Part shown: positions 18,814-53,719 of the stretch, piece by piece
Layout: every line of letters begins with the position of its first letter
How positions within the stretch are numbered: position 1 is the stretch's first letter
NCBI GenBank assembly: GCA_913058495.1
Contig: CAJXQC010000001.1
Span: 60,779 to 124,778, forward strand
Length of the DNA: 64,000 bases
DNA from: an uncultured Balneola sp.
Lineage (GTDB): Bacteria > Bacteroidota > Rhodothermia > Balneolales > Balneolaceae
Direction: 5' to 3'
The notes under the pieces: generated by a model
Told to the model about the DNA's origin: nothing
Database searches by the model: none
Seen by the model: the letters and a program-made list of their open reading frames with translations, nothing else
Position numbers and translations under genes: made by a program

Positions 18814-18844
18814 GGGTATAAAGGCTAATTTAGGTTAATAAGGC

Positions 18845-19664: not shown

Positions 19665-19668
19665 GGGG

Positions 19669-19902
19669 CTATTTCTTGAACTTTAGCCACAGAAAGCCTG
19701 CCGCAAGGGCAATGGCAGCCGCTTTGTACTTCATAGGCACATCGCCGTTGACGTATTTCTTGGCGGTATCCACCAAATCCGTTTTGGTGTTTTCGGCTTC
19801 GGCATTTTTAACGTCCACTACAGGGGAGGAACCGATACCGGCTCCATTGTTTCCGCAGCCGCATCCAAGGCCGTTATCGGAGGTATAGCTTGATTTACTC
19901 AT
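19669..19902 (-). CDS. Small tail-anchored membrane protein (GLG motif)
   Basis: SSY...NGLGCGCG; C-terminal AAAIALAAGFLWLKFKK. Confidence 0.6.
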   Translation of the reverse strand: MSKSSYTSDNGLGCGCGNNGAGIGSSPVVDVKNAEAENTKTDLVDTAKKYVNGDVPMKYKAAAIALAAGFLWLKFKK

Positions 19903-19918
19903 GGGTTATCAGGTTAGG

Positions 19919-20305
19919 TTAGCGTAAGATTTTAAAGAGGATTCCGGCTCCAACAATACCGGCCCCGGCCAGTGCGATCATCTTCTTGTTGATCGGTTTT
20001 TTCTGTGTGACCACCGGCTCACTTTTGGTTATAGGTGGCTGGGCAGTTGCCACAGGCTTTTTGGTCAAATCACGGACCACCGGAGTTACTTTGGGTGGCG
20101 TAATTTTGGGCAATTTTGGCAGAACCGGTTTTCTCATCCTGGGAGAAAGCCCCCGAGGAATGGATATGGTTGGTCGCCGAGTAACACCAGTAGATACCGG
20201 TCGGATAGCGGTGTTCAACTCAGTGGGTAGTGTCGGGCCGAGTACCATTCGCCCCAAACCGGGGGAGCTTTCCTCGCTGTAGATATATCCGGAAGATGAT
20301 TTCAT
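19919..20305 (-). CDS. Pro/Lys-rich tail-anchored membrane protein (SGY...GLG motif)
   Basis: SSGY...PGLG; C-terminal MIALAGAGIVGAGILFKILR. Confidence 0.6.
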   Translation of the reverse strand: MKSSSGYIYSEESSPGLGRMVLGPTLPTELNTAIRPVSTGVTRRPTISIPRGLSPRMRKPVLPKLPKITPPKVTPVVRDLTKKPVATAQPPITKSEPVVTQKKPINKKMIALAGAGIVGAGILFKILR

Positions 20306-20311
20306 AGTGTT

Positions 20312-20866
20312 TTATTGTGTGTTAAAGATTTGGTAGGAAATAAATCCTGTGATGATGAGTGGCACCAGTACCATGCTGGCCGTGGAAGCTTTGGAAATAC
20401 CCATTACCGACTCCACGATTTCTTTACGGCGCAGCACATCGGAGGCGTAATTTTGCCCGGTGGTAATCAGGTTCGGATCAATGCCAGCATTTATGGTATT
20501 TCTTACTTTTGAGTAGCCTGCGTTGTATGCCGCTACAGCTGGAGTGAGCTTGCCGCCAAATTTGCCGATCAGATCTGCCAGGAACTTGCTGCCATAGTGG
20601 ATGTTAGCGCGGTGGTCGTTATTGGTATGGGAGCTCGTAAAGTCCGAGTGATACCTGCGGTCGATTTGCATGATGCCGATGCCGTTGCCGTTGTCGCCCG
20701 TCCAGTTATTGTCCAACGCCAATCCCATATGGCTTTCCCTGGAGGCGATGGCCAAAAGCAGGGAAACCGGCACATTATTAGCCCGAGAAGCCTCATAGAA
20801 GTGCCCCATAATGCCTTTCACCCGAAGGTAGCTGAGCTGGGAAGATATGGACAGCGCGCTGCTCAC
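20312..20866 (-). CDS. Membrane-anchored lytic transglycosylase (SLT/lysozyme-like)
   Basis: IASRES (catalytic Glu), GIMQID, AAYNAG motifs; C-terminal TM. Confidence 0.85.
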   Translation of the reverse strand: MSSALSISSQLSYLRVKGIMGHFYEASRANNVPVSLLLAIASRESHMGLALDNNWTGDNGNGIGIMQIDRRYHSDFTSSHTNNDHRANIHYGSKFLADLIGKFGGKLTPAVAAYNAGYSKVRNTINAGIDPNLITTGQNYASDVLRRKEIVESVMGISKASTASMVLVPLIITGFISYQIFNTQ

Positions 20867-22288
20867 TTATACAATGGCCTTACAGTTGAAGGTGACTTTT
20901 GCGGTTTCACCCGCTCCGATGGTAAACTGATCGACCGGAGCCAATGCCTTTCGGGCCAAAAGATGCGGATGGATATTTAATGAGTTATTCTTGTTCCCGA
21001 ATAACCCAATTTCCCGGACGGTAATGGGTGTTGCTCCCCGGTTCTCAAAAATACGCTCTACCGGGAAGTAAACCTCGTTGGCCACATCATCGACTACCAA
21101 TTTTCCGATATGCGTGCCGTGGTGCACCAGTTCTCCATTCCCATATCCGTGTGGAACACCATTCACTTCTGCATTTTCTGGGGTGAGCGAAGTATCGGTC
21201 ATGGATACAAACTTATTGGAGGTTCCCACGCGAACGCCAAATTGCCAGCCTTCCAGATTCCGATCGACATTGAAGTTTACCCCTGTTCCGCCACCACCTA
21301 AACCGGCAGTAAAATGAAACTCGTTTTCCCAGTTGTAGGCAGCGCTTGGGTTGGCAATCCGGTGCAAGATAGACATGAAACTTTCCGTCCAACCACCATT
21401 AGTGCCATTGGCGTCCGTATCCTGATTAAAGTTCTCAATCATGGAAATGATCTCGTAATCCAGTGACAAGGTGGAGGTATTTCCAAGACTGATGGGTGCC
21501 CCAAGCACGTCCCGAGCCATTAGCATATACGCACTCTTGGCATTGCCAGACATAATGCCAATTTCTCTAATATCTCGAATGGCTCCCGTCATGTTGGTGA
21601 ACGGTCGGGATAGGGTAAATTTGGAACTCTCCTGGTCGGTAATAAGTGAAGTAATGGACACAGCCCCTTGGGTGCACCCCCGCTTGAAATACCCCGGAAG
21701 GCACAAGTCAGAAGCCTTAACCGGCTGATCACTCATGCCAATGATCGGCTCCCAATTTATGGGCAGGTGATAATCTCTGTCTGTCCAGGTATTTCTGTAT
21801 TTGGCTGCCATAGAAACACCGGAAGTTCCATCCCATACCCCGGTCAGGTGAGGAACAATCCCCCGAATGTAATATTTATACGTGCTATGGCGATCCAAAG
21901 GGAATTGCCCGATTGCATTATCATGAAAGTACACGCCGTTCAATCCTTCTAACCCGAGTACTCCTTGTATGGTGATCAAGTCATGTTCCACACCACTGTA
22001 TTCATGATACTTGTCCAGCTCAATGATGAGATCCTGCCCGGATTCAGTAATACTGGTGATGTTACTGATTTCTTTTCGGGTACTATCTCCATCCCAGTAG
22101 TCATCCTGATTCGTTTTACCCATTTGAATGCGCATCCACTTTAGCAGGTTTCCTACAAAGCTTTCGCATTTCATACGGTACAGGTGCCGTTGTTCCAGAG
22201 ACAGGTCACAGTACATATCAAGACCGCTTGCTGTTTTTCCGACGTTTAAATCCGTTGTAATGATTTTCATGGGGGTTTGTTTATGCAA
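20867..22288 (-). CDS. Putative spike/receptor-binding protein with two-fold internal repeat
   Basis: Repeated R.F.N...REIG[IL]...L[ML]AR unit; beta-rich and Gly-rich. Confidence 0.45.
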   Translation of the reverse strand: MHKQTPMKIITTDLNVGKTASGLDMYCDLSLEQRHLYRMKCESFVGNLLKWMRIQMGKTNQDDYWDGDSTRKEISNITSITESGQDLIIELDKYHEYSGVEHDLITIQGVLGLEGLNGVYFHDNAIGQFPLDRHSTYKYYIRGIVPHLTGVWDGTSGVSMAAKYRNTWTDRDYHLPINWEPIIGMSDQPVKASDLCLPGYFKRGCTQGAVSITSLITDQESSKFTLSRPFTNMTGAIRDIREIGIMSGNAKSAYMLMARDVLGAPISLGNTSTLSLDYEIISMIENFNQDTDANGTNGGWTESFMSILHRIANPSAAYNWENEFHFTAGLGGGGTGVNFNVDRNLEGWQFGVRVGTSNKFVSMTDTSLTPENAEVNGVPHGYGNGELVHHGTHIGKLVVDDVANEVYFPVERIFENRGATPITVREIGLFGNKNNSLNIHPHLLARKALAPVDQFTIGAGETAKVTFNCKAIV

Positions 22289-22296
22289 ATATGAGG

Positions 22297-22875
22297 TTAT
22301 GTAATGGTGTAGCTGATGTTGGTAGTCAGAGAACTGTTGTTGTTGGCATTAACCTCTTTCACCTGGTCCAGTGGCTCGGGTTGAGAGTGCTCGTGGTCAA
22401 AAGCCGCTGGCTGATCCGAAGCAATGGGTTCGGTACGATAGCCCGAAATGGAAGTGGTTGGAAAGTTCGTGCAGTCGATGCTGGTGGTTTTTACCAATAC
22501 CAACTCCAGCTGGGTTTCGGTAGCCATTCGCCCACGGTTTTTGATATCCAGATCCGGGGGAACCACGACCATGTAGATGTCCGAGATCCCGGTTTTTCCG
22601 TGCTCGGTTCGAGAGCGCACGCGGAAATAATGCCGCTGATCAACCAGCGTTTGAGGCAGGTAGAGCTGGTGATAACGAACCATTTCTTCGGGTTCAATGT
22701 GAACTTCGGGCGTTTGAAATGGAACCGAGTCGTCCCAGCCCCAGTCAATCTGGCTTGATGCTGGTTCTCCGGTAGCCCACGAGATCAAAATAGAGCCGTC
22801 CACAAGCATACCGCTGACGACTCGCATCTTGAAAGCCTCGTTTAGGCCAAATTCCTGCCCGCTAATCTTGCTCAT
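22297..22875 (-). CDS. FN3-like domain protein
   Basis: ISWATGEPASSQIDWG...HQLYL...HYFRVRS fibronectin-III pattern. Confidence 0.65.
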   Translation of the reverse strand: MSKISGQEFGLNEAFKMRVVSGMLVDGSILISWATGEPASSQIDWGWDDSVPFQTPEVHIEPEEMVRYHQLYLPQTLVDQRHYFRVRSRTEHGKTGISDIYMVVVPPDLDIKNRGRMATETQLELVLVKTTSIDCTNFPTTSISGYRTEPIASDQPAAFDHEHSQPEPLDQVKEVNANNNSSLTTNISYTIT

Positions 22876-22876
22876 C

Positions 22877-23290
22877 TCAGCTCGTCCAGAAGATTTCGGT
22901 TACTAGCGCTTTGGACTCGTCTCCGGGATTCGTCGCCTCATCCCATAGCCCCATAAAGCCGCCTTTGTAGAGCTCGCCGAACCGGCGTAGATCAAAGTGC
23001 AGGGTTTCACCCGCCCGAAGTTTGAAGGTGTAGTACTTGTCCGAGATGCGCTGGCTGTCTAGGGCAATCATCAGTTCGCCTTCGCTGCTGTTTTGGATGA
23101 TCACCCCCAACCGGTGCGGGTTTTCGTTGACCAGGCGAACGGGCTGCACGCCCTGTTTCATCACCGGGGAAATGGAGGAGGCAATTCGAGCTTGACTGGG
23201 CTGGCTGCCTTGCGTTTTTTGCAGGTTTGTAACCAGCGCTTCCACGTTGGCGGCCAGCTCGCAAAGCACTTTAATCAGTTCGTTGAGCAT
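22877..23290 (-). CDS. Putative single beta-sandwich minor capsid/penton protein
   Basis: N-terminal coiled helix then NPHRLGVIIQNSS...KLRAGETLHF all-beta domain; directly downstream of the capsid candidates. Confidence 0.4.
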   Translation of the reverse strand: MLNELIKVLCELAANVEALVTNLQKTQGSQPSQARIASSISPVMKQGVQPVRLVNENPHRLGVIIQNSSEGELMIALDSQRISDKYYTFKLRAGETLHFDLRRFGELYKGGFMGLWDEATNPGDESKALVTEIFWTS

Positions 23291-23292
23291 AG

Positions 23293-24069
23293 CTACTCCG
23301 CTGGGATGAATCCGGTTCTTATCTGCACGTAGCTCTCACAAAGGAAACTTACCTCGGCAGGCTGGGCACCATAGTTGGAAGCGTACACGTCAAACGGCAC
23401 GTTCGAGCCCACCACAAAGGGTACGTTGATGTACTTGTCGTTGAACTCGTCGTTCACCTGCTCCAGGAATACTTCATCGCGAACCGTGGTGTTGTACACT
23501 TTCATCGAAGCGGTAATAGCTCCTGGCTGGTTACTGCTCATGGCCATGCGCCGAACCTGAACGTCCACGCTTTTGCTTTTCACGCCCAGATCAATGTTGA
23601 GCCCGCCAGCTGGAACCGTGCTATGGCCATACAGGAACCGGGGCACGGGAATCGAAGCTCCAATCTGCTGGTAGGCCGCATTTAGTTTGGACAGGGCAAA
23701 CTGGTCATAACCGACAATCTGAATGTTTACCGTTTGCTTAGCAGCACCGGTATTGGTGAGTTCAAAAACGATATGGTTGTTCTTTTGAATGATAAAAGGA
23801 GCAAATAGTCCGTCAATAGATTTGAACAGATTGTGCACTACCGAGAGCTGGACGCCCCGAAACAGATAAAGGTCTTCGTTTAGACGAGCGGAAATCAAAA
23901 TGGCATTCATGTTGGCGCTGAACGGGAGAATCTTTCGGATGCCGTAGCGCTCTCCACCCATGCCGTTCATGGTAAGGTGAGCCGTTGCTCCCGGTTGCAC
24001 CTCAACCGATTTGGCCGGATTGTAAGCTGAACTTTCTTTAGGAGGTAAAAAATTGGAGAGTATCTTCAT
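23293..24069 (-). CDS. Putative double jelly-roll capsid protein (tandem duplicated beta domain)
   Basis: Halves align: VQPG/VPAG, GIRKI/QVRRM, PFIIQKN/PFVVGSN, TNTGA/SNYGA, IQIVGY/FLCESY; size similar to small DJR capsid proteins. Confidence 0.55.
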   Translation of the reverse strand: MKILSNFLPPKESSAYNPAKSVEVQPGATAHLTMNGMGGERYGIRKILPFSANMNAILISARLNEDLYLFRGVQLSVVHNLFKSIDGLFAPFIIQKNNHIVFELTNTGAAKQTVNIQIVGYDQFALSKLNAAYQQIGASIPVPRFLYGHSTVPAGGLNIDLGVKSKSVDVQVRRMAMSSNQPGAITASMKVYNTTVRDEVFLEQVNDEFNDKYINVPFVVGSNVPFDVYASNYGAQPAEVSFLCESYVQIRTGFIPAE

Positions 24070-24101
24070 GGTGTTGCTTTGAGGTAGTCAGGATTACTTG
24101 G

Positions 24102-24143
24102 AAAAAAGAATCCCGCCGGAATCAGCGAACTGAAACCGGCGGG
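24102..24143 (-). terminator. Intrinsic terminator after the 203-aa capsid candidate
   Basis: CCCGCCGG-N16-CCGGCGGG stem, then ATTC and a T6 run on the minus strand. Confidence 0.75.
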
Positions 24144-24153
24144 TAGGGATGGA

Positions 24154-24765
24154 TTACTCAACTTCAGCGACTACCATGGAAGCCCTGAGCCACAACTCTC
24201 CCTGACCGGATTGGTTCCAGTTCTCTGTGGTTGGGAACACTGAGGCGTCATCAAAATGGACGGCAAGGGAAACCGTCTGGTTGATGGCCAGATCAAACGG
24301 ATCGGCCAGGCGGTACTCACTGGCAGATTTCATGGTAACAAGCCGGCGATACTCGGCTACGGCGTCAACGGTATTATTGGTGGCCGAGGTAAACTGAATA
24401 CCGGTTCCAGCAAAGTTGGAGAACTCACTCATGGGAGCGCGGAGGAATTCCTTGTTGTCGTTATCGGCCTGAAGCAGAATGGCCGCGTCTTTGAGCCCGT
24501 TCACGATGGCGCGTGCATCGATGCCATTGGCTGGATCGTCTTCAATAAATTGTTTGGTGAGTTCAAAGGATAGGCCCAGAATCCGGCGTTTCATAGCTCC
24601 GGGAAACGGGTTACTTACATAGTTGTCCCGCGTTAGTTTTCGATCTGCATTAGCAGGAAAGAAATTAAGGACTGATTGATTTTGCTGTACTTTGCGTGTG
24701 TCAAAATAGGTCTTGATGCGCGCAGTAGCTGGAACAAGTGCTTTTTTGGAGATTTTATCGCTCAT
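24154..24765 (-). CDS. Putative single jelly-roll major capsid protein
   Basis: YFDT...LNFF...DN...PFP...RILGLSF...PFDLAIN beta-rich pattern; shares PFx[ILV]xxN with both halves of the next gene; followed by a terminator. Confidence 0.5.
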   Translation of the reverse strand: MSDKISKKALVPATARIKTYFDTRKVQQNQSVLNFFPANADRKLTRDNYVSNPFPGAMKRRILGLSFELTKQFIEDDPANGIDARAIVNGLKDAAILLQADNDNKEFLRAPMSEFSNFAGTGIQFTSATNNTVDAVAEYRRLVTMKSASEYRLADPFDLAINQTVSLAVHFDDASVFPTTENWNQSGQGELWLRASMVVAEVE

Positions 24766-24856
24766 AACTGTGATTTAAAAGGTTTAGAAAATGGCTGATA
24801 GCCGGTTTGGTATTACCAGTACCCCTTTTGCAATGCAGAGCTATGAGGTGTTATTT

Positions 24857-25360
24857 CTAGACTTCGATGGTATTATCAACCTCTAAAGAATGTTCTACCT
24901 CATCCACATGGTGTGTTTTTTCCTGGATTTCAGGCAGGTTGTCATACACGTACCCGGAGCCATCCATAAGACCTTGCTGGGGTGTCCAGTCAGGGGTAAT
25001 AAATTTGATGACTTCCATTACGCCTTGTACGCCCATACCCATGGCCAAACCGCGAACGTGTTTGTTTTTGGAAAGGAGCGTTAGAAGTACTCCAGCGGTG
25101 AGAGGGATACCTGCTCGGGTGGCTTGTTGAATAGTTGCTGAGGCGTTGCCTGTCAGCAAGGGGACGGCCAGGACATTCATCTGGGCTGCCACCGCTTGTC
25201 CACCAAGAATATATCCGGCGGTGATAGCCTGCTGCTTGAACTCAGAGACCGCCTTCTCGGTAGTGATTTTGCTTTCTGTTATCATATTACTGCGTCGTTT
25301 GTTTGGGTTTTCGATGATTTGTAGCTCGGAAGGGTTCTTGGCGAACACGCGCTCTTTCAT
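24857..25360 (-). CDS. Virion membrane protein candidate
   Basis: Several Gly/Ala-rich hydrophobic segments; N-terminal NP motifs; directly upstream of the capsid candidate. Confidence 0.5.
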   Translation of the reverse strand: MKERVFAKNPSELQIIENPNKRRSNMITESKITTEKAVSEFKQQAITAGYILGGQAVAAQMNVLAVPLLTGNASATIQQATRAGIPLTAGVLLTLLSKNKHVRGLAMGMGVQGVMEVIKFITPDWTPQQGLMDGSGYVYDNLPEIQEKTHHVDEVEHSLEVDNTIEV

Positions 25361-25388
25361 AGGTGCCTTCGTTGTTCTGGCGGGTGGC

Positions 25389-28300
25389 TCAATTAAGAAT
25401 GCCCCTGCCGTCTATGTTGACGTTAGCGATGATGTACACATCACCGTATTTAAACACCGGTCGCTTGCCCGCATCGAAGTAGTGGAAATAGTGATTGTCT
25501 TTGCCTTTTTCGTCATCGGCGTAGATAATCTTATCGCTCACGTACATAATGCGGTCGGCATAGCCGGCACTGATCAGTTTCTCGCCTAAAGGCGGAAACA
25601 GCTCATAATCGTAGTCATCTGCCGGGAAATGATGAAACTCCTCAAACATTTCGGCGGCTTTCGGGTCATTGTAAGCTCCCTTGGAGAGCCTCATTAAACT
25701 GGTTGGAAACACATAAATAGTGGTGCCTTTGGCGTTGATGATCATCGCCAGATCATCAGATTCGGCTTCCACGCGCTGCATGTAGCCCTTGGCGTCGATG
25801 TACTCCAGTTCCTTGACGATGCCGGAATAGACCAGTGGTTCTTCATAGAGGGTTTTGAGTACGCCGTGTCGTTTGGTGGTTTTTGCAGGCACACTGTCCG
25901 CCTTGTTCTCACGAAGTTGAGGCGATCCTTTGGGTGCACTGCCTTTTAGCGAACCCACATCACGGACAGTGATCGTTTTGCGGATCTTGTATTTCGGGGC
26001 GATCCGGTTGATCTCTTCATACAGCTCGTTCCGGTCATCGTAGCTCACCGCCACCAGCTGGTTGACCACATCGTTGAGTTCGATCACGGTCTTCTGATTG
26101 TTTTCGCTTGCGGTTTTAGACGCTTCCAGCTCTGTTTTGGTATCTGCCAGCACCTTTTGAAGTTCAGCCAGCGTTTTCTCGGTCTGCTTTAATTCACTGC
26201 TTAGCAGTTCCATGCGGGACTGGGAGGTTCTGATCCACGCTTTTTCGAGTTCCAGGAATAGCTCCGCCAGTTTTCGGGTGATAATCGGCTGCCACTTTTT
26301 GATGGTAAACATCCCGGCGGACTCTTTGATGGCCTTGAAGCTTTGCTCGTTTCCAACCTCGTCTTTTTTGGCCTTTTCGGCTTCGATGTCGATGCCGTAT
26401 TCCGCGTAAAAATCTTCCTCCGTGGCAATGATGTTGCCAAGGTTGCCGGAGATGGATTTGCCCTGTCCGGTCTTTTCTTCCAGCGTCCACCCGAAGGCAG
26501 TGGCCAGCTCTTTGGAGGCCATACGTTTGATGGAACCCCACGTCTGCTTGTTGTAGAACGAGCGGTCAGGGATATTGCTGTCGGGGATCAGGTGAAACCA
26601 TACCCGCCCGTTGGCATTGTTTTCGGGCACGTCCAGCACGGTTTTCATGCGGTAGCCGGAAATGCGTTTGGAGTCGGAGCTAAGCTGGATATCGAGCTGG
26701 TACGGCTCGCCGTTCCACCCGTACTGCACGTCTAACAGGTTCTCCTTTAACGCTTTTTCAGCGCTTTCGGGAAGCTTTGAGTTTTGTAAGGCCGATTCCC
26801 GCTCTACCACGCTTTTCATGCGATCCTGTTTTCCCTGGATATCGGTGGTCGCCTGCGCTTGGCTGGCTTGGAGTCGTTGCACTTCAGATTCCAGGTTGTC
26901 AATCCGGTCATCGAGTACGTTCTTTTGAGCTAAAGCTTCGAAAAATTGTTTTACTCGCGGATCGGAGTTGGTCGCGGCTACCATCTGCTCGTATTCCAGT
27001 GACTCCGAGTCGCCACCCGTGGACACTTCACGCACGGTGCCAAAGAACAGGTCATCAATCCAGCTCTGTTTTTTGGAGACCAGTTCCAGCCGGTACTGAT
27101 CAAAGGAGTCCTGCATTAGGTAGTAGTGAATCTGAACTTCCCCATACTGATTCCCCTGACGAAGCCCGCGCCCGTTGCGCTGCTGGATTTGCGAAGGCGT
27201 GTAGGGAACGTCCATGTGGTGCATGTCGGTCGTCCACTTCTGAAGGTTCATCCCCTCGGCAATCGACTGGTTGCCAATTACCACCCGGTACTTACCCTGG
27301 TTGAAATTGTCCTGCACTTCTTTCTTAAGCGCTTCCTTGTCGTCTTTGCTACTCACGGAGTAATCATCCCCGTTTTTGCTCGTGCCAATGATAGACCCGT
27401 TGATGATCGCAATCTGCTCTTTGGGGATTCCGGCTTTGACCAGCTCGGATTTGATGAGCTGATGGAAACTACCTCCCTGAGACTGATGAAGGCTGATCCA
27501 GTCGCAGAATATAATCTGGTTGCGAATAGCAGGGCTGGCTGGATTGGATCGGCTTGCTTTGATCTGCTCCCATTCTTTATTGAGCTTATGGGCGCGTTCG
27601 GTAGCTTCTTTTTCGTTGCCAAAGATGCCTTCGCTCCATGTGTGTTCTGGTTTTTTGGGCTCCAGTATATGCAGGGGCTCATACACTTCTTTCTTTTCAT
27701 CCCAGACCACCCAGTAGCCGCTCTTTTCTTTTACCACACCCTTGCTGGTAATGACCTCAATATGGGATGGGTTCTCCCGGAGGTGCGGAGGAGTCACGGC
27801 AATCTGTCCTCTGCCTGGCCGGTGAAAATAGTCGCCGTATAGGTCTTCCGGCACCATTTCGGGAGCGGGATTGGAACGGGCCCCGTAGGAAGCGGCCACG
27901 TTTTCGACCATTGCTCCAAGCTTGAGGTAGGATCGGTCGATACCTTCAAAATCCTTGTCGTACACCCGCAGGTCGGTCGCAATTTTGCTGCCATCGCCGG
28001 TAATTACAAGAAAGTTGTCGCGGGTTTCGCACTGCCGTTCTTTCATGCAGGCGATGACCTCGTTGGCCCGGAGGATAATGTCATCAAAAAGAAGCTTATG
28101 CAGCTCGCTGGGCTCAATAATCACGTTTCGGGTACTGGCCTTGGGGCGCTTGAATTTGGGTTCGAGCACCTTGGGTTTTCCATCCTTGCCATTGACCGTT
28201 TTACCGTCCTCATCCTGAATATAGTCTGGGAATTCCTTGTAAAAACCAATCAGCTGATCGTAGCTCTTGATGTCCATTACCTCGTCAATGATCTTGCGCA

Positions 28301-31300: not shown

Positions 31301-32618
31301 CGGCAAAGTTGCCCACGCCAGCGCCTGGCTCTAAAATATTGCCACCCGTGACACCCATTAGTTGAAGCTTATCCCAAATGAGTTTGACCACGGGGTACGA
31401 GGTGTAGTGCTCATTTAGCAAGCCCCGCTTGGACTGCTCGGTGGATTCGGTGTAGCCTAACCCGCCCGCCCCGGTGTAAGAGCGGAGTAGGTCGATATCG
31501 GATTTGGTAATCGCGCGGTCTTCTTTTTGAAGCACCCCGATGGCCGCTTCGTTGGCTTTGCGACGCTCGGAGGCGGTTAGCTTGATGGGCGCAAATTCCG
31601 AAAGTTCGGTGTCGCTAAACCTAAAAGTTGATTGGCCTGATTTCTTTTTGGGCTGTTTGGCAGGTGTTGGTTTCTTAGATGTGGCTCGGTTAAATACCCC
31701 GTCAAAATCGACGCCGATGATGCGACCGTGTGCCCTGAAAAGCTCCAGGGCTTCTTCTCTATGCTCTGCCGGAAACTTGTCCAGCTGAAATGCCAAGGCC
31801 AGTTTACCTATGGTCTGCTCAAAATCTGCCTGAAGCTGTTGGAGCTCGCTGCCTGGATTAGACCGAAGGGTAAGCTGGGTTTCAAGCGCTTCCAAATCGA
31901 CCAAATAAGGTTCGAGTTTTTCCGCTGATTCGGTGTCGCCTTTGTCGGCTTTCCACGCGAGTTGGGTGAGTTCTTCCAGGAGTGCCCCGTTAAGCTGGCC
32001 CACTTTATAGGGCTGGTGCGAGGCCGCCGAAATCATGGACATCCGTTTGGTTTTAACCTGGATTTCGACCGGGTACTGCCCGTCCACTACGAGGATAAAA
32101 TGATGGGCGCGGTAGCCATTCGCTGGGTTTTTATATTTGTCTTCGTGTTCCCACACTTCGCCCAACTCGCCCGAAAGGATACGCTCCACCATCTTATCCA
32201 CCTGCTCCTGGGTTTCAGCAATGGCCATACAACCCGCCACATCGGTCAGGCCGGTAGTGTATTTTTCTCCGGCTTTGGTGGCCATTTTTTCGGTAAAGGG
32301 AAACCTTTTGCGAATGAGTTTCCCTAAAGTGGAATAAATTTCTTTAATTCGGCCCTTTACCACCAAGGCCAGATTCATAGCCAATAGCCCTTTCATGACT
32401 TTCTTTAGGGCCGGGATATAGTTGTTTTTCGCCTCAATCACGGCCTTGATCTGCGGTGCCAGTTCGGCCTCAGAAACCGGGGCGGTATCTCCCGGAGTAA
32501 GCGGGTTGGGATCATCAATATTGACAATCCCGTCGGAGTCCCAGTCGCCCAACCAGTGATCAAAGTCGCCGGTGGACAGGTGGGTAATCTGGTCGATATT
32601 TGTTTTAACTACGGGCAT
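25389..32618 (-). CDS. 2409-aa polyvalent protein: RelA/SpoT-like synthetase + N6-adenine MTase + SNF2 helicase (DarB-like) + unknown C-terminal domain
   Basis: KGRIK, DVAG, NGYRAHH, EIQVKT; LEPGAGVGNF, GNVPFG; HDVGAGKT, DEAH, LTATP, AEGMNLQ, QRNGRGLRQ. Confidence 0.85.
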   Translation of the reverse strand: MPVVKTNIDQITHLSTGDFDHWLGDWDSDGIVNIDDPNPLTPGDTAPVSEAELAPQIKAVIEAKNNYIPALKKVMKGLLAMNLALVVKGRIKEIYSTLGKLIRKRFPFTEKMATKAGEKYTTGLTDVAGCMAIAETQEQVDKMVERILSGELGEVWEHEDKYKNPANGYRAHHFILVVDGQYPVEIQVKTKRMSMISAASHQPYKVGQLNGALLEELTQLAWKADKGDTESAEKLEPYLVDLEALETQLTLRSNPGSELQQLQADFEQTIGKLALAFQLDKFPAEHREEALELFRAHGRIIGVDFDGVFNRATSKKPTPAKQPKKKSGQSTFRFSDTELSEFAPIKLTASERRKANEAAIGVLQKEDRAITKSDIDLLRSYTGAGGLGYTESTEQSKRGLLNEHYTSYPVVKLIWDKLQLMGVTGGNILEPGAGVGNFAGFLPDRDKFRMVMIERSAISSRIASLLYPMQTVRHENFADTDLSLYNLTGVVGNVPFGDLKIHTSRDPLAPMSPRIHDYFILKSLDALKPGGFLAVITSTGTMDKKDPSIRQAMIQRAHFVGAYRLPSTAFKDNADTTVTTDILFFQKYGEHQGDIHPDVDSKLNRLFAQEELIESQVSYNGETYTASYNPYYKEHPNHVLGEHIQGHHVQFYSRMGVKGELSESVINSVLSDGLTFPYSLPVEMPLYNIPDDGIMLNLPRSYHPGNIVFHENHFYEKQRRFFKRLTLKGGSGLEARTRSACQLLDKYDDYITALAQETSEKDALRAEFKQLLSGHIEQYGVPDEDEDIRKVFKFDNRLYKLTTLVKRDPLNGELVHADIIDADSMFNRNYVPAVKDSDDLAELAMFGRSIGETLDLDFYQSVYKGGTTSKEELEKALEDHPDFYWNPATSNHEFRYQYLSGNVREKLQLAQEHELEKNIKALQEVVPEWIDVYNITVDPQHVFTYLPAKAIEEWIKDEMNYDKVEIGLVKDKAELGNRFYMKLRKWGRYVGTGDETPDDNNLGWGETPFTKIITSYIQDSTFPLKFYDEDDNLMPSMTLKEAQSMKGERGQMLIERARKIQRQNNNRMLTHVPKKFNNWVRTKASSEVRGMIEAAYNHTYNAVINPPFDGRTLRVRGMSDTFYGVKDFTVYKHNRAIAEKLVWNGKGANCHDVGAGKTLASIITSQVLLQQGAARKPMFVVPGKVQEKWVEEYLMLFPDAKVLNMKMAGGDKHKELTMAQLYNWDAIFIADHAFKSLPLSPAEQARIYQERIDYFNQMLENFEDLLEEDEAISKAAKTSMMKRMEKQMEEWETKLRNVAHSKRLETDIFFDELGVDCLFFDEAHFYKNALGSAKAAKLGISANKPSQRAEDTLQKTRWLFSKVGHKNVFVLTATPVVNSPVEVWHMLNLCAPDLLAKYEIENLDNFINLFVREEEKIVKKTNGEYRSERVVAGYYNLPEMRKIIDEVMDIKSYDQLIGFYKEFPDYIQDEDGKTVNGKDGKPKVLEPKFKRPKASTRNVIIEPSELHKLLFDDIILRANEVIACMKERQCETRDNFLVITGDGSKIATDLRVYDKDFEGIDRSYLKLGAMVENVAASYGARSNPAPEMVPEDLYGDYFHRPGRGQIAVTPPHLRENPSHIEVITSKGVVKEKSGYWVVWDEKKEVYEPLHILEPKKPEHTWSEGIFGNEKEATERAHKLNKEWEQIKASRSNPASPAIRNQIIFCDWISLHQSQGGSFHQLIKSELVKAGIPKEQIAIINGSIIGTSKNGDDYSVSSKDDKEALKKEVQDNFNQGKYRVVIGNQSIAEGMNLQKWTTDMHHMDVPYTPSQIQQRNGRGLRQGNQYGEVQIHYYLMQDSFDQYRLELVSKKQSWIDDLFFGTVREVSTGGDSESLEYEQMVAATNSDPRVKQFFEALAQKNVLDDRIDNLESEVQRLQASQAQATTDIQGKQDRMKSVVERESALQNSKLPESAEKALKENLLDVQYGWNGEPYQLDIQLSSDSKRISGYRMKTVLDVPENNANGRVWFHLIPDSNIPDRSFYNKQTWGSIKRMASKELATAFGWTLEEKTGQGKSISGNLGNIIATEEDFYAEYGIDIEAEKAKKDEVGNEQSFKAIKESAGMFTIKKWQPIITRKLAELFLELEKAWIRTSQSRMELLSSELKQTEKTLAELQKVLADTKTELEASKTASENNQKTVIELNDVVNQLVAVSYDDRNELYEEINRIAPKYKIRKTITVRDVGSLKGSAPKGSPQLRENKADSVPAKTTKRHGVLKTLYEEPLVYSGIVKELEYIDAKGYMQRVEAESDDLAMIINAKGTTIYVFPTSLMRLSKGAYNDPKAAEMFEEFHHFPADDYDYELFPPLGEKLISAGYADRIMYVSDKIIYADDEKGKDNHYFHYFDAGKRPVFKYGDVYIIANVNIDGRGILN

Positions 32619-32621
32619 GGC

Positions 32622-34040
32622 TTAGCTAAGGACTTTTTCTAAAAAGGCATCGAGTTTGGCCTGGCTTTTTCGGGCGGCTTCTAGGTCTACTTCAGCCTTT
32701 GGAGGCGTCTGCTCTTTAGGCTTAGGTGCTGGTTTGGATTTCTTTACCGCCGATTTTTTCTTGGCGGTTTTCTTGGTGGGCGGAGTAGGTTTGCGCTTAG
32801 GTGTTTTCTTGGCTTTGGCTTTGCCGGTTGGCGGGCAATCCGCGGTGCCATCTTGCAACTTTTCCTGCCTCCGGTATTCTCGCGCGCCCAACACTTTCTT
32901 TGCATGATCCTGGGCCAGAATCTGTACTTCCAGATTTCCGTGCTTTTTCACCAGCTGAGCCCAGGAAGCCGCAAATCCGCCTTTGGCCCCTTCGGTGCAG
33001 ATCTGGGTTTTCAGCTCCCCGTCAATGAGCAGCTCCACGATGTAACGTTTGTTGTAGTAGTCGGGCACATAGCGAATGCTCAGTGTTGCCCGTTCGGACT
33101 CCCCGGAATGCTGTTTGGCGTAGCACGGCATTTTGGAGCCGAGCAGTGAATTCACCCGTTTCCAGGAGCGCAGTTTGTGGAGGGTATTGATTTTTTTGAG
33201 TGAGATCGTAAATGGCAACTCTACGGGATTATCGCGTGGCTCGCTGTGCGTGGGATTCATTAAATAGCTTCCTCTTTTTGAGGCCCAATGGGCTGCCTGC
33301 TGTTTAGTGAGACCAAATTCATCCTGAAAAAAGTCGATGAGTTCCTCATCAGTTGAGGTCTCATTATTAGAAAGCTGGTCTTCCACGCCTTCATGCTGGC
33401 TTTGCGTAAGCGGGGGAATAATTTTTAGAGTTTCGGCAGTGGCTAATGTGCCAAATGGAACATCGATGGCATTTAATAACTGATAGCGGTTTTTTTCGGT
33501 CTCAGCCAGTCCCTCTTTGGTTACTTTAATTTCAATGTCGCATTCGTGTGCGATACTGGTGTTGCCCTTATACTTGCCATCTTTGGTCGCATGTGCCACC
33601 ATGATGAACCCAATGCCATGTTCGCGGCACCACTGTGCCAGTTCTACCGTGGAGGCGTCTTTGGCGTCAATGACAGAAATAGAATCCAATACGCAAAAGG
33701 CAGATCTGTTTTTCAGCAGGGTTTCTTTTAGCGATGTGAGTGATTTCCACTTAGTAAAGTTCAGGTTGTTGTGGGTCGCTTTTAATCGCTTGACTCGGTC
33801 AATGAGTGTTTTACCGAAATGTTCTTCGGCTGGTATATATTCGACTCTACCGTGCTGTGCAAGAGCGTTTGCAAGGCCTAAACTGAAGGTGGACTTTCCG
33901 GCCCCTTTCTCACCCCAGATAAAGATGACGGCATTTTTCTCCGGTTCCCCAAGAAGTGTACCATAAGGTTCGGCAATCTTGATGCCTTTGATGTTTATTT
34001 TTGCCAGTTCTTTGGCGCTCAGAGTATTCTGGATGTCCAT
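32622..34040 (-). CDS. RecA/RadA(Sms)-like ATPase with Lys/Pro/Ala-rich C-terminal tail
   Basis: WGEKGAGKS Walker A, CVLDSIS Walker B, AH.TKDG...G...IAHECD, KNRY; tail KKTPKRKPTPPTKKTAKKK. Confidence 0.8.
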   Translation of the reverse strand: MDIQNTLSAKELAKINIKGIKIAEPYGTLLGEPEKNAVIFIWGEKGAGKSTFSLGLANALAQHGRVEYIPAEEHFGKTLIDRVKRLKATHNNLNFTKWKSLTSLKETLLKNRSAFCVLDSISVIDAKDASTVELAQWCREHGIGFIMVAHATKDGKYKGNTSIAHECDIEIKVTKEGLAETEKNRYQLLNAIDVPFGTLATAETLKIIPPLTQSQHEGVEDQLSNNETSTDEELIDFFQDEFGLTKQQAAHWASKRGSYLMNPTHSEPRDNPVELPFTISLKKINTLHKLRSWKRVNSLLGSKMPCYAKQHSGESERATLSIRYVPDYYNKRYIVELLIDGELKTQICTEGAKGGFAASWAQLVKKHGNLEVQILAQDHAKKVLGAREYRRQEKLQDGTADCPPTGKAKAKKTPKRKPTPPTKKTAKKKSAVKKSKPAPKPKEQTPPKAEVDLEAARKSQAKLDAFLEKVLS

Positions 34041-34041
34041 A

Positions 34042-34362
34042 TCAACGGTTCCTCATTTTTTTAGCGATCACAATTAAAGCACCGATGGCAATGCCAGCCA
34101 GAACAGCTTTGGTCAGCATGGCTTTTTTATCTGTTTTCATATTTAATGGAGCATTGGATACCCCCAGTTTTGAAAGTAGTGTTGGCCCGGCCTCTCCGGT
34201 TACCGGAAGAGAATACCTACGTTGAGCTTTCATAACGGCAGATTGGGTTTCACTTCCAAATTTTCCGTCAATACCATATTGAGGTAGATCAAATCCTGCT
34301 TTTTGCAATCCTGCTTGGAGCCTGATTACCTGTTGTCCTGAGGCGCCTTTACTGAGAGTCAT
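34042..34362 (-). CDS. Tail-anchored peptidoglycan-binding protein
   Basis: LSKGASGQQVIRLQ...L...IDGKFGSET..AV...Q...LPVTG PG-binding pattern; C-terminal TM plus KKMRNR. Confidence 0.85.
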   Translation of the reverse strand: MTLSKGASGQQVIRLQAGLQKAGFDLPQYGIDGKFGSETQSAVMKAQRRYSLPVTGEAGPTLLSKLGVSNAPLNMKTDKKAMLTKAVLAGIAIGALIVIAKKMRNR

Positions 34363-34754
34363 TTCTTCGATGTTGAGTTATACGTTCGATGTGCAAGCAC
34401 ACCTATTGTGATACCGATCAGAAGCGTAGAGCTATACTTTATCAGTGGTGATTTAGCTGAGGATGATAAAGGATCATCGGTAGTTAATTTCTTTGCCAGA
34501 GCCACCAAATCCACATACTCGAAGTAGGCGTCAATGACTCCGGCGTTCTGTTCATATACCCTGGTGATACCTGCTTTACTGGTGGTCAGGTTGGCCAGGT
34601 TGAGTCCCATCGTGGCAAGCTGGCCGCGACGACCACTTGTGGCGCTCTGAAGTTTCCCCGCAAACAGCTTAAAGGCGTTTTGCGAGGTGCGTTGCAGGTA
34701 ATCGTCCATGCCGTGTAATGCAGTACCGGTATGTGGTATAAAAGTTGATTTCAT
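34359..34754 (-). CDS. Tail-anchored membrane protein
   Basis: C-terminal LLIGITIGVLA plus basic tail; 4-bp overlaps on both sides. Confidence 0.6.
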   Translation of the reverse strand: MKSTFIPHTGTALHGMDDYLQRTSQNAFKLFAGKLQSATSGRRGQLATMGLNLANLTTSKAGITRVYEQNAGVIDAYFEYVDLVALAKKLTTDDPLSSSAKSPLIKYSSTLLIGITIGVLAHRTYNSTSKK

Positions 34755-35434
34755 TCGGCAGGTACTTTAGGAGCTAAGGCTTTTACACCCGCCCGAAGTC
34801 CAGGGAGCATGGGGGCTAAGAAATAAAGCCCCGCACCAGCAACCGATATAATGATCACCCGTTTGAGTAGCGTATTCACCTCCCCAAGGGTGTTACCCGG
34901 TCCAAGTTCGGGCATCTTGTACCACGACTCGGTGGGTGGAGAATACACCCCGGACTGCTCGCCGGTTTTCTGGTCCAGGTCGAGGGAAATGGGTGCGGAC
35001 TTTTCGATGAGATCTGAAGCGGGTAGCTTGCTTAAATCAATATCATCGGGGTACACTTCAAAAACCACTTTATGGCCCGAGGTGGGAACAAACGAACGGT
35101 CAAAAACGAGTCGTCCCTGTGCGCGGCAACCGTCCATCATCGACGTTCCGAACCGCTGGAAGCCTAATACAGACCCAGTCTGCTCCGACCGAACCACCAC
35201 AAGGGCGTCGGGGCATTGCCCCCAGCTGGCCAGAAACGGAACAAACAGCACTTTGGCCCAATTCCGGAAGGTTTCAATTTCAAGGTCAAGCGAAAACGGA
35301 ACCCCGCTGGGCGGGTTCCCCGAGGCGGGGTTACGCCCGATAATGCGAAGTTCTACAGCCTCGGAGCTTATGATATTGCTGGACAGGTTGAGCTGCCCGA
35401 GTCCGGTGTCGATATATCCTGATTGCGCGTTCAT
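34751..35434 (-). CDS. Tail-anchored beta-sandwich protein (SGY...GLG motif)
   Basis: QSGYIDTGLG; beta-rich core with two Cys; TM VIIISVAGAGLYFL. Confidence 0.6.
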   Translation of the reverse strand: MNAQSGYIDTGLGQLNLSSNIISSEAVELRIIGRNPASGNPPSGVPFSLDLEIETFRNWAKVLFVPFLASWGQCPDALVVVRSEQTGSVLGFQRFGTSMMDGCRAQGRLVFDRSFVPTSGHKVVFEVYPDDIDLSKLPASDLIEKSAPISLDLDQKTGEQSGVYSPPTESWYKMPELGPGNTLGEVNTLLKRVIIISVAGAGLYFLAPMLPGLRAGVKALAPKVPAE

Positions 35435-35435
35435 T

Positions 35436-35705
35436 TTACCTCCTTAGCAAGCGGTAGCCTACATAAAGGCCACCTGCGATTAGTAAGGTGTTCTGGTTAT
35501 CCCGAATCCACTGCGAAAGTGAAATCGGCTGCTCCTGAAGTCGCTGGCATAGTTTTTTGGCCGCAGGCTCTTCGCCTTCGCCCATTTCTATGACCTGCAT
35601 ATCCGGCTGCTCGTAAGAAGTATCTTCCGTGTCAGGCAATACCATAGGGGCATGGCCACCTGGAACGCCACCGTCTAAATACGTTGAAATTCGTCCTGCT
35701 TGCAT
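35436..35705 (-). CDS. Small acidic tail-anchored protein
   Basis: C-terminal LLIAGGLYVGYRLLRR. Confidence 0.6.
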   Translation of the reverse strand: MQAGRISTYLDGGVPGGHAPMVLPDTEDTSYEQPDMQVIEMGEGEEPAAKKLCQRLQEQPISLSQWIRDNQNTLLIAGGLYVGYRLLRR

Positions 35706-35707
35706 AC

Positions 35708-36031
35708 TTACTTCTTCAGCACTTTGAGTAGAATGATCCCACCGACTATGGCGATTCCTGCTATGCCCGCATACTTGATCAACTCTCCCGAGCCGCTGGG
35801 AGCAGGTGCGCCTTGGCCGGGATATAGCACCGGCGGTTGTCCGCCTCCAGACTTGTTTCCGCCTTTGTTGACGACCCCATCTATGGTCACCACGGTATCG
35901 GTTGCGGTCTTAAGTAAGTCGTTGATAGAGGTTAAAGCCGAGCCAAATTTGGTTTGGGTGGGCTGGGAAACGATAGCTGCTCGTTGGTTGAGAAGGTCAA
36001 AACTGGTATAACCGCTGGGTTGTTTGGTCAT
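35708..36031 (-). CDS. Small Gly-rich tail-anchored protein
   Basis: PSGY; C-terminal YAGIAGIAIVGGIILLKVLKK. Confidence 0.6.
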   Translation of the reverse strand: MTKQPSGYTSFDLLNQRAAIVSQPTQTKFGSALTSINDLLKTATDTVVTIDGVVNKGGNKSGGGQPPVLYPGQGAPAPSGSGELIKYAGIAGIAIVGGIILLKVLKK

Positions 36032-36044
36032 GGGACAGGCCTGC

Positions 36045-36467
36045 TTATTTAGAAGATTTCTTTTTTCGTTTCAGCATCAAAACCGCCAAAGCAATAGCTC
36101 CGGTAAGAGCAACTCCACCCACAGCGATACCCGACTTCATGGTCGAATTGGCTGTCTGCTGCTGGGAAGCGGTAGTGGTAAGATTGGTCTGGAGCGCCTG
36201 CATCATTTCTTCGCGCTGGCCTTCCCACTGGGCTTTCTTTTGAAGGGAAGCTTCGTGCGCTTTGCAAAGCGCCTGACTTTTCTCACGTTGACGGCGGCAG
36301 CTTTTCAGCTTGCCAAACATTTTGCCTTTACAGCTTTGGTTGGCGTACCGGCACGGGTCGGTTTCTTCCCAATTGCCCAGTCCGGGACTGATGGCCACGG
36401 CAATCACCGCATTTTCCTCTCCAATGACAGTATCCTCTAAGGGAATGATAAATCCACTTTTACTCAT
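36045..36467 (-). CDS. Cys-containing tail-anchored protein (SGF...GLG motif)
   Basis: KSGF...PGLG; four Cys; C-terminal TM plus KRKKKSSK. Confidence 0.6.
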   Translation of the reverse strand: MSKSGFIIPLEDTVIGEENAVIAVAISPGLGNWEETDPCRYANQSCKGKMFGKLKSCRRQREKSQALCKAHEASLQKKAQWEGQREEMMQALQTNLTTTASQQQTANSTMKSGIAVGGVALTGAIALAVLMLKRKKKSSK

Positions 36468-36470
36468 GGT

Positions 36471-37487
36471 CTATTTATTTAGAAGCATATACCCGCCACC
36501 AATCAGAACCAAGGTTCCAATGGCAAGACCAGCATACAGCCCCATTTTTTTGGTTTTATTTGCTGCTTGTTGTTGAGTAACCCAAACCGGGGAAAGTTGC
36601 CCGTAGCGATTCAGTTGCTGAACCGCCGGGGCACCAAGTTCATCTATAATCTGTGCGTAGCGCTGAAGTGTGGCATTATCCTTTTGGGAAAGACTGATGA
36701 CCTCGGATTGCACGCCTCGCTGCATGAGGTGATCTCGAAGGGCTCCGCGCATTTGGCGCTCACCAGAATCCTTGGCTCCAAATATGCTGGACAAGGTATT
36801 TTTTAGCGTCATCCCGGTACTGGCCATTGTTGTAGCCGTGGTGAGTAGCGTAATAGGGTCAAGCCCCAAACCTTCCGGCATCAGGTTGGTGACGTGCCTG
36901 GATTTTTTAATGAGCCGCTCATCAAATACGTAACCTGGATATTTCAGCACAGTTGTATCGAAAGATTTCCAGCCGGTAGGTGATTGGTACACCGCGTAAA
37001 TATGGTCAAAGTGACGTCCCGTTCGCGAGACAATGCGAAAGCCCGTTTGAATACCTAAGCTTTGCAGCAAGGCAGCACCTAAAATGGCATGATCATCGCA
37101 GTCACCGGCTCGCTGAGTAATGGTGACAAAGGGCGATTGAATACGCTCGACATCCCATGGGTCGCGCACGTAATTCACGTTGCGCACCATCCACTTGTAT
37201 ATGGCGGAGGCAATAGCGTCAATGTTTCGCAGGTCGGGTTGTCCGGTAAGCCGGTGTCGCCGGATTGTGCTTGTAATTTTGAGAGCAAGTGAGCGAATGC
37301 GCTCGTCGCCGGTATATTTAGTAACCAACCTGCTGGCTGCCGAAATTACGCCTTCCACACCGGGGTAGGCCTGGCGTCGTGTAGAAAGAGGTACTGTGGA
37401 TGCTTCCAAAGAAGCATCCACAGCCCGTGCTCTGGCATGTTGCTGCTGGGTATCTGGTAATATCTGTACGTAGCCACTTTGCATCAA
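36471..37487 (-). CDS. Transglutaminase-like (Cys-His-Asp) enzyme with C-terminal membrane anchor; putative maturation protease
   Basis: YVRDP...GDCDDH, FDHIYA, SFDTT triad; internal EGLG; C-terminal TM. Confidence 0.8.
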   Translation of the reverse strand: MMQSGYVQILPDTQQQHARARAVDASLEASTVPLSTRRQAYPGVEGVISAASRLVTKYTGDERIRSLALKITSTIRRHRLTGQPDLRNIDAIASAIYKWMVRNVNYVRDPWDVERIQSPFVTITQRAGDCDDHAILGAALLQSLGIQTGFRIVSRTGRHFDHIYAVYQSPTGWKSFDTTVLKYPGYVFDERLIKKSRHVTNLMPEGLGLDPITLLTTATTMASTGMTLKNTLSSIFGAKDSGERQMRGALRDHLMQRGVQSEVISLSQKDNATLQRYAQIIDELGAPAVQQLNRYGQLSPVWVTQQQAANKTKKMGLYAGLAIGTLVLIGGGYMLLNK

Positions 37488-37705
37488 CGTATCAACCCTT
37501 TGGTAAGCTGGCTAATCGAGTGGACGGGATTTTCCTTGATTCTTTTATGGGTTAAAGATGCCAATCCATATGTGGGAAAATTTTCGGTAATTAGGACTCC
37601 AATAAATTGTCCATTTCGGGTCACGGTGGTAATACTTGCTTCCTCGGCTATGGAGAACAGCTGATTTCGCAGTTGGGAGATCGTTTTAGTTTGGACTGTC
37701 CTCAT
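37484..37705 (-). CDS. Phd/YefM-like small DNA-binding protein
   Basis: ISQLRNQLFSI...ITTVTRNGQFIGVLI matches the Phd N-terminal fold pattern. Confidence 0.6.
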   Translation of the reverse strand: MRTVQTKTISQLRNQLFSIAEEASITTVTRNGQFIGVLITENFPTYGLASLTHKRIKENPVHSISQLTKGLIR

Positions 37706-49894: not shown

Positions 49895-51229
<1,335 letters not shown>

Positions 51230-51240
51230 TTATAATTAAT

Positions 51241-51278
51241 AAAAAAGCCCCTTTCGGGGATGAGTCCGAAAGAGGCTT
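51241..51278 (-). terminator. Terminator of the SAM riboswitch expression platform
   Basis: AAGCCTCTTTCGG...CCGAAAGGGGCTT stem followed by a T run on the minus strand. Confidence 0.8.
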
Positions 51279-53716: not shown

Positions 53717-53719
53717 GTC

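Follow-up and report, generated by a model that had tools for sequence, protein, structure and literature searches.

A conserved N-terminal tag on tail-anchored proteins of an SSIP-1-like provirus and a candidate transglutaminase-fold processing enzyme

Membrane-containing phages pose two questions: how the proteins of the internal membrane are chosen, and whether the particles mature by proteolysis, as those of adenovirus do. SSIP-1-like viruses are widespread and almost unstudied tailless phages of this kind, found in several bacterial phyla. Both questions are raised by a 64,000-nucleotide (nt) stretch of DNA from an uncultured Balneola sp. (GenBank assembly GCA_913058495.1, contig CAJXQC010000001.1, positions 60,779 to 124,778 of the forward strand), hereafter the window, in whose coordinates all positions are given. 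The window contains a block that, judged by gene content and order, is the operon with which an integrated virus, tailless and with an internal membrane, builds its particles; the virus is related to Salisaeta phage SSIP-1. SSIP-1 is an icosahedral tailless phage with an internal membrane and 2 major capsid protein types (PMC6356626). An initial annotation had proposed that a signature of SG[YF] followed by GLG, shared by tail-anchored proteins of the block, is a maturation code, and that a co-encoded Cys-His-Asp enzyme cleaves at GLG (including its own) or cross-links these proteins during assembly. The signature proved to be shared, conserved, and limited to anchored proteins, and the enzyme intact in fold and triad; the tag and GLG are separable, and cleavage at GLG is putative.

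The aromatic tag and the G-[LM]-G border

SG[YF] was found as annotated near the N-termini of 5 proteins (338, 140, 107, 227, and 128 amino acids (aa)), all on the minus strand (Table 1). When SSY is counted as well, the motif lies at residues 4-8 of 6 open reading frames (ORFs), those ending at 19902, 20305, 35434, 36031, 36467, and 37487. Within the first 10 residues, SG[YF] occurs in 6 of 2380 ATG-initiated ORFs of at least 150 aa in the host genome (0.25%; 2 of these 6 are from the module itself) versus 5 of 26 module proteins (binomial P = 9e-10). The middle Gly is variable in orthologues (G, S, A, H, N, or T), and the true motif is therefore S-x-[YF], followed usually by I, V, T, or L. 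Counted per family, since orthologues are not independent, S-x-[YF] is present in the first 12 residues of 8 of the 11 C-terminally anchored families and in 0 of the 10 others, which include the capsid candidates, the ATPase, a giant protein, and an M15-like peptidase (Fisher P = 0.001).

The tag is strongly conserved in homologous elements, being kept in 29/29, 29/29, 27/28, 27/27, and 26/29 orthologues of the 338-aa, 140-aa, 107-aa, 89-aa, and 227-aa proteins, respectively (the start codons of some orthologues were picked by alignment to the window proteins). It is retained across Balneolaceae proviruses down to 35-60% identity, at which the remaining N-terminal 20-35 residues of these 5 families can no longer be aligned between clades. 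In the 89-aa family it takes the forms IS[TK][YF], QSRY, or ISH[YF]. The tag is also kept in the 128-aa family, in 2 clades of the 77-aa family, and in the closest clade of the 131-aa family. Its Ser is encoded by AGY in 3 families and by TCN in 2, and its Tyr/Phe by all 4 codons; selection has therefore acted on the protein, not on DNA or start context, and a nucleotide-level signal is largely ruled out by this codon variation. A type IV prepilin-like leader would have Gly at -1, Phe/Met at +1, and Glu at +5 ahead of a hydrophobic helix of approximately 20 residues; it is ruled out as well, the residue before Y/F being G, S, A, H, N, or T and no hydrophobic helix following. Literature searches gave no description of such a tag in membrane-containing phages and nothing relevant on tail-anchored proteins in them, and PHROGs yielded no family for the enzyme or any tagged protein.

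The 5 GLG sites of the initial annotation are likewise all in place (Table 1). GLG alone is mildly enriched (8 occurrences in 7529 aa versus 3.5 expected, P = 0.027); 4 of the sites come shortly after the tag, no further than residue 31 (P = 1.7e-4). GLG is invariant in the 128-aa family (7/7 orthologues seen) and mostly kept in the 227-aa and 77-aa families; in the 140-aa family it is only part of a longer motif, GL[GED][GN]W. The stretch from tag to GLG varies in length and sequence, and in 4 families the variable leader gives way to the conserved body at G-[LM]-G, as expected of a cut site. The conserved bodies begin 0-5 residues after G-[LM]-G in the 140-aa, 227-aa, 128-aa, 77-aa, and 131-aa families. 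The 140-aa protein has an acidic variable leader between tag and GLG and then the conserved body WEExDPCRYANQSC, and the 227-aa protein has a conserved β-rich body after GLG. In the 131-aa family, close relatives have [ST]-[GE]-[YF], and distant relatives and SSIP-1 gp36 have G-[LM]-G at that border instead. The 167-aa protein carries its conserved motif away from the N-terminus and in reversed order, with GLM before S-x-Y.

At the DNA level, the S-P-G-L-G codons of the 128-aa protein differ little from those of the 140-aa protein (repeat D8; 20253-20273 and 36581-36601), which may be a trace of exchange between leaders.

Table 1. Tagged and motif-bearing proteins of the provirus, with positions of their motifs in the window
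Feature	Span	Strand	Tag	GLG	Remarks
Membrane-anchored transglutaminase-fold enzyme, 338 aa	36471..37487	-	SGY, 37470-37478	residues 206-208, 36864-36872	homologue of SSIP-1 structural protein gp34; Cys130, 37098-37100; His162, 37002-37004; Asp177, 36957-36959
Tail-anchored protein, 140 aa	36045..36467	-	SGF, 36450-36458	residues 29-31, 36375-36383	
Tail-anchored protein, 107 aa	35708..36031	-	SGY, 36008-36016	absent	
Protein with weakly hydrophobic C-terminus, 89 aa	35436..35705	-	STY, residues 7-9, 35679-35687	absent	
Tail-anchored protein, 227 aa	34751..35434	-	SGY, 35414-35422	residues 11-13, 35396-35404	SSIP-1 gp35 homologue
Tail-anchored protein, 131 aa	34359..34754	-	STF, 34740-34748		SSIP-1 gp36 homologue
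Tail-anchored Pro/Lys-rich protein, 128 aa	19919..20305	-	SGY, 20285-20293	residues 16-18, 20252-20260	
Tail-anchored protein, 77 aa	19669..19902	-	SSY, 19885-19893	residues 11-13, 19864-19872	GLG followed by CGCG motif
Membrane protein, 167 aa	24857..25360	-			SSIP-1 gp44 homologue; internal GLM[DE]GS-x-Y[VIL] in C-terminal tail, 24950-24973
SSIP-1-like provirus (context)	18547..44216	-			ends at tRNA-Met (44142-44216, + strand)

In a second, divergent SSIP-1-like element of a Gracilimonas genome, anchored proteins start with MDSGFIVYDEHELG, MDTSMYVFDQPKNEAELGLG, MENSGFVYSHENQSELG, MSSGYV, and MDSNYVGLAG. Acidobacteria relatives have other leaders, with M-Y-[IVL]-[RT] or M-[SA]-Y at the start and R-G-[LM]-G at the end, and a metagenomic relative has leaders of the form [QE]-[LI]-V-V-S-K...G-L-G. 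In SSIP-1, G[LM]G is found at residue 17 of gp36, 34 of gp37, 18 of gp52, 31 of gp53, and 211 of gp34. By these comparisons, the G-[LM]-G border is old and general, with S-x-[YF] as the form that the leader takes in Balneolaceae. Scans of viral contigs for relatives, seeded with the ATPase, returned SSIP-1 only; a metagenome scan gave 3 usable distant elements (L134, L135, and L137), 2 of which show the enzyme or a remnant of it, the contig of L137 beginning too near the ATPase to show enzyme presence.

The membrane-anchored transglutaminase-fold enzyme

Pfam, AlphaFold2 (AF2), Foldseek, and alignments agree that the co-encoded candidate Cys enzyme has a transglutaminase/papain-like fold with a conserved Cys130-His162-Asp177 triad. 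The only Pfam families matched at E 0.01 or better were PF01841 (Transglut_core; residues 91-177, 33.5 bits against a cut-off of 23) and PF04473 (26.1 against 20.5). All 3 residues of the triad are invariant in 27 close homologues; among 55 sequences down to 20% identity, C130 and H162 are invariant and D177 is at least 90% conserved. The AF2 model built with the deeper alignment (predicted local distance difference test score, 80) has disordered residues 1-36, which include the tag, and a core of approximately residues 40-205. As annotated, GLG (residues 206-208) stands between the catalytic core and the anchored half: it comes directly after the last core strand, at the start of a flexible linker, which leads to a helical domain and then a C-terminal transmembrane helix. 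The enzyme has no signal peptide.

Among solved structures, those nearest in fold (3isr, CPR-C4, and LapG) are cysteine proteases, putative or proven: Foldseek placed 3isr, a putative cysteine protease, nearest (E = 4.5e-6), followed by LapG (E = 3.8e-4). Weaker matches comprised PNGase, the CPR-C4 protease, TglA, TgpA, the pseudomurein endoisopeptidases PeiP (E = 0.036) and PeiW (E = 0.052), and the transglutaminases TG2/TG3. Since the matches span proteases, PeiP/PeiW, and transglutaminases, the fold does not choose among them, and the modeled structure would suit a protease, an isopeptidase, or a cross-linker. No adenain family appeared in the Pfam output and none among the 50 fold matches listed, and the residue order here is Cys-His-Asp. 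The enzyme does not belong to the LapG/BTLCP family either, whose profile was unmatched at Pfam E 0.01; it has a C-terminal transmembrane helix and no signal peptide, and LapG is a distant relative of it in fold only.

The linker motif recurs beyond the closest relatives. In close homologues G208 is invariant and L207 at least 90% conserved. Among the best 150 of 2691 representatives (E ≤0.001; library clustered at 50% identity), linker G-[LM]-G is present in 21 of the 73 C-terminally anchored distant homologues (29%) versus 4-16% for control tripeptides. The SSIP-1 homologue gp34 has RGMGE in its linker and is annotated as a virion structural protein, and the enzyme is therefore placed in the particle.

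In the divergent Gracilimonas element (L107+L108, G041:C1:1168000-1200000; ORFs 2349-3560 and 3563-4150), the enzyme occurs as a fusion to a paralogue of the next gene, with an internal M-A-S-G-F-V...S-E-L-G kept at the fusion junction. Two distant representatives (P0066 and P0068) keep an internal Met-x-Ser-x-Phe-Val...E-[G]-L-G. The internal tag at the fusion junction is suggestive of an internal start or, alternatively, of a processing cassette.

A possible two-part signal and its alternatives

We propose that the tail-anchored virion proteins carry a two-part N-terminal signal. The first part would be the aromatic tag, S-x-[YF]-[IVTL] in the first 5-9 residues, by which all the membrane proteins would be recruited or docked; its reader is probably a single viral partner that would bring in the whole set together. 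The second part would be G-[LM]-G, 3-22 residues downstream, a candidate cut site at the leader/body border, which the co-encoded membrane-anchored Cys-His-Asp enzyme most likely cuts; Leu/Met would occupy the S2 pocket, and Gly the P1 position. Both parts are present in the enzyme too, as a tag and a G-L-G in the linker after the catalytic core. Papain-like enzymes usually prefer an aliphatic residue at P2 and a small residue at P1; at GLG these would be Leu and Gly, which makes cleavage there plausible. The N-terminal part of a tail-anchored protein stays in the cytoplasm, and the tagged end is predicted to be cytoplasmic while the virus assembles and to lie toward the capsid shell once the particle is complete. 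Were assembly to follow the course known from PRD1, the space between membrane and shell would be a single compartment for the tags, the enzyme core, the SLT domain, and the peptidoglycan (PG)-binding domain of the operon. That G-[LM]-G is cleaved by the co-encoded enzyme is a serious candidate reading of these sequences, which we put forward tentatively. More doubtful is the wider claim that SSIP-1-like viruses mature with an anchored transglutaminase-fold protease, which would remove lineage-specific targeting leaders at G-[LM]-G and release itself at the same site.

Several observations weigh against cleavage of a common leader. The tag occurs without G-[LM]-G in the 107-aa and 89-aa families, the motif of the 167-aa protein is internal and reversed, and the tag of the enzyme lies approximately 200 residues from its own GLG. 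In the 140-aa family GLG is degenerate (GLEGW, GLDGW), and the N-termini of SSIP-1 have no S-x-[YF]. AF2 docked neither the N-terminal tail nor the linker in the active site, with shallow or deeper alignments, a result that by itself favors neither side, and the fold of the enzyme is common to the PeiP/PeiW cell-wall isopeptidases of archaeal phages and to true transglutaminases. All related elements were found through the enzyme or also encode it, and the link between enzyme and motif is thus a co-occurrence without a negative control.

Because the tag occurs without GLG, on the enzyme, and internally, it cannot be a protease leader only, and a separate docking role is suggested. Docking could also be the whole function, which we consider possible but open to doubt: S-x-[YF] would stay on the mature proteins and bind a repeated site on the inner capsid shell or an assembly factor, holding the membrane proteins under the shell, G-[LM]-G would be a flexible hinge, and the enzyme would have another job. 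The 2 families without GLG, the motif in the C-terminal tail of the gp44 homologue, and the tag on the enzyme, distant from any GLG, all favor such an uncleaved tag, as do its position on disordered termini and its limitation to anchored proteins whose N-termini would face the capsid; leaders and shell proteins both differ between lineages, as for a co-evolving binding pair. Left unexplained are the regular G-[LM]-G border between leader and body and the recurrence of the motif in the enzyme linker of distant homologues, and the partner is putative. The enzyme may alternatively be a virion-borne cell-wall endopeptidase or isopeptidase for entry or lysis, in which case its closeness to the motif genes would reflect operon organization only. 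The operon does encode other anchored wall enzymes (the SLT and PG-binding proteins) and an M15-like peptidase, PeiP and PeiW are among the fold matches, and gp34 is structural; however, PeiP and PeiW match weakly, protease-type members (3isr, LapG) match best in both fold and sequence, no PHROG lysin family is matched, and neither the leader in common nor the tag and linker motif of the enzyme itself would be explained. We regard a wall enzyme as unlikely.

Cross-linking, the other activity named in the initial annotation, fares worse still and is very unlikely. A true transglutaminase would join the tags to each other or to the capsid by Gln-Lys isopeptide bonds, and the closest clade indeed has mostly Gln/Lys just before S-x-[YF] (MQSGY, MNAQSGY, MTKQPSGY, MSKSGF, MKSSSGY), with TG2/TG3 and TglA among the fold matches at weak E-values. 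The low rating follows from the loss of Gln/Lys in the Fodinibius/Aliifodinibius clade (MSSHY, MSSSY, MNSSSY, MSHSNY), in which S and Y/F are kept, so that Gln/Lys is unconserved beyond the closest clade; in addition, the nearest solved relatives are hydrolases. It is least credible of all that the motif has no protein role and is a relic of gene duplication or a nucleotide-level signal such as a translation start context. The tags adjoin start codons, the SPGLG codons of 2 genes are nearly identical DNA (repeat D8), and some of the small proteins could be old paralogues; against these stand the AGY/TCN and Tyr/Phe codon variation, the survival of the tag as the only part of otherwise unalignable N-termini down to 35-60% identity, the internal occurrence of the motif, and start regions that overlap upstream genes by 4 nt at most.

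The proposed tag and enzyme pair can be set beside several known systems. The closest relative is SSIP-1, with 9 homologous proteins in the same order, a gp34 that is a C-terminally anchored transglutaminase-fold structural protein (E = 5e-34), and G[LM]G close to the N-terminal ends of gp36, gp37, gp52, and gp53 as well as in the linker of gp34. It differs in N-termini without S-x-[YF], in its genome of 43.8 kb compared with approximately 26 kb for the provirus here, and in identities of only 21-39%; its annotation records no function or processing. In logic, the nearest systems are the targeting sequences of T4, the adenovirus protease, LapG, and the C39 double-glycine leaders. In phage T4, capsid-targeting sequences of internal proteins are removed by the prohead protease gp21. 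The likeness is a short N-terminal tag on unrelated proteins that combines targeting with a terminal protease site (targeting and cut both being putative here); by contrast, T4 has a tail, packs soluble cargo into a head made of protein only, and uses a herpesvirus/HK97-type serine protease; its sequence motif is L/I-x-E.

The adenovirus protease adenain (MEROPS C5) cuts virion precursors at (M/I/L)-X-G-X|G and (M/I/L)-X-G-G|X, and the adenovirus pVI site IVGL|G contains G-L-G. One virion-packaged cysteine protease thus trims several particle proteins at short Gly-containing sites, as would be the case here if the putative cleavage occurs; adenain, however, is a clan CE enzyme with His-Glu-Cys, unlike the transglutaminase/papain-like Cys-His-Asp enzyme of the provirus, which would act on tail-anchored membrane proteins at sites without a hydrophobic P4. 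SSIP-1 has a capsid architecture of the vertical jelly-roll, PRD1/adenovirus type in common with adenovirus (PMC6356626). LapG is like the enzyme in its transglutaminase-like fold and Cys-His-Asp residues and trims an N-terminal retention piece of a membrane-associated substrate at a small-residue motif, but it is a cellular enzyme, soluble in the periplasm and dependent on calcium, with Ala-Ala as its cut site, and it matches at a sequence E of 0.22 with only 16-19% identity (Foldseek E as above). In bacteriocin exporters, a C39 papain-like peptidase removes short N-terminal leaders that end in Gly-Gly or Gly-Ala and have upstream recognition residues. The leaders of the divergent Gracilimonas element (..E-L-G) are loosely similar to these; there is no C39 domain (no Pfam similarity) and no ABC transporter here, and the substrates would be virus membrane proteins. 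PeiW and PeiP, from phages of methanogens, are also phage-encoded transglutaminase-fold cysteine enzymes with weak fold matches (E = 0.036-0.05), but they are soluble lysins with wall-binding repeats, act on the archaeal cell wall, and have no leader-bearing neighbors. The enzyme is a member of none of these families, only of the broad transglutaminase-like superfamily.

If the wider claim on SSIP-1-like viruses is true, prokaryotic viruses of the PRD1/adenovirus type would have their first known maturation protease and their first known sorting code for membrane proteins, a functional parallel of adenovirus maturation by an unrelated protease fold. The conserved tag on the anchored set and the adjacent virion cysteine enzyme turn both opening questions into simple experiments; a cultured relative, SSIP-1, exists, and the provirus family is common in cultivable Balneolaceae. 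Were the tag alone sufficient for incorporation, it could load foreign proteins into such particles. What is added here is the separable aromatic tag, proof from codons that selection acts on the protein, statistics on the linker motif, a fused variant whose tag is internal, and a lineage near cultivable hosts.

The provirus and its neighbors

The block is approximately 26 kb long, lies entirely on the minus strand, and has a G+C content of 49-52% versus 31-43% in the flanks. Besides the tagged membrane-protein block, it comprises blocks for lysis/entry and for replication/regulation, capsid-protein candidates (among them proteins of 203 and 258 aa), a gp40-like ATPase, and a gp43-like protein of 2409 aa. 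Nine of its proteins match SSIP-1 gp34, 35, 36, 40, 43, 44, 45/46, 47, and 54 in identical order (BLASTP; the ATPase matches gp40 at 5e-22 in tblastn), and several of the SSIP-1 counterparts are annotated as virion structural proteins. Because homologues stand in the same order as in SSIP-1 and the particle type of SSIP-1 is established, we read the block as an SSIP-1-like particle-building operon. The approximately 11 C-terminally anchored proteins, together with this homology, lead us to infer an icosahedral particle with an internal lipid membrane. The anchored wall enzymes of the operon are an SLT transglycosylase (PF01464, 1.4e-13) and a PG_binding_1 protein (6.4e-16), both tail-anchored.

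The gene order of the block is retained in 5 more genomes. Gracilimonas and Balneola genomes carry near-identical proviruses (85-92% DNA identity), and more distant, fully syntenic copies are present in Rhodohalobacter, Fodinibius, and Aliifodinibius. The homology between related proviruses ends at the tRNA-Met, at which the right end was set by this comparison; no attachment-site repeats were found with a 12-nt seed. In the same Gracilimonas and Balneola genomes, the host flank (50000-56000) matches at 74-75% identity over 1 gene, compared with 85-92% for the provirus (18600-44216). The element, with 50% G+C in a host of 36-43%, seems mobile between genera.

In the Acidobacteria loci L037, L039, and L043 and in other distant loci, no homologue of the gp40-like ATPase was detectable up to 10 kb downstream of the enzyme; membrane-protein and capsid-like genes are nonetheless present. 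The giant 2409-aa RelA/SpoT-methylase-SNF2 protein has a C-terminal ...RGILN (25389-25420) in common with SSIP-1 gp43, and Acidobacteria relatives encode far smaller proteins (296-428 aa) with a GIVN end (L037, 15198-16484; L043, 15222-16112), which suggests a conserved C-terminal particle-incorporation or anchoring domain. In the 258-aa capsid candidate, which is homologous to gp47, a conserved MNGMGGE[RS][YF]G lies close to the N-terminus (23962-23970, in the region of residues 34-36), and an S-[AP]-[YF]-N-P lies at residues 13-17.

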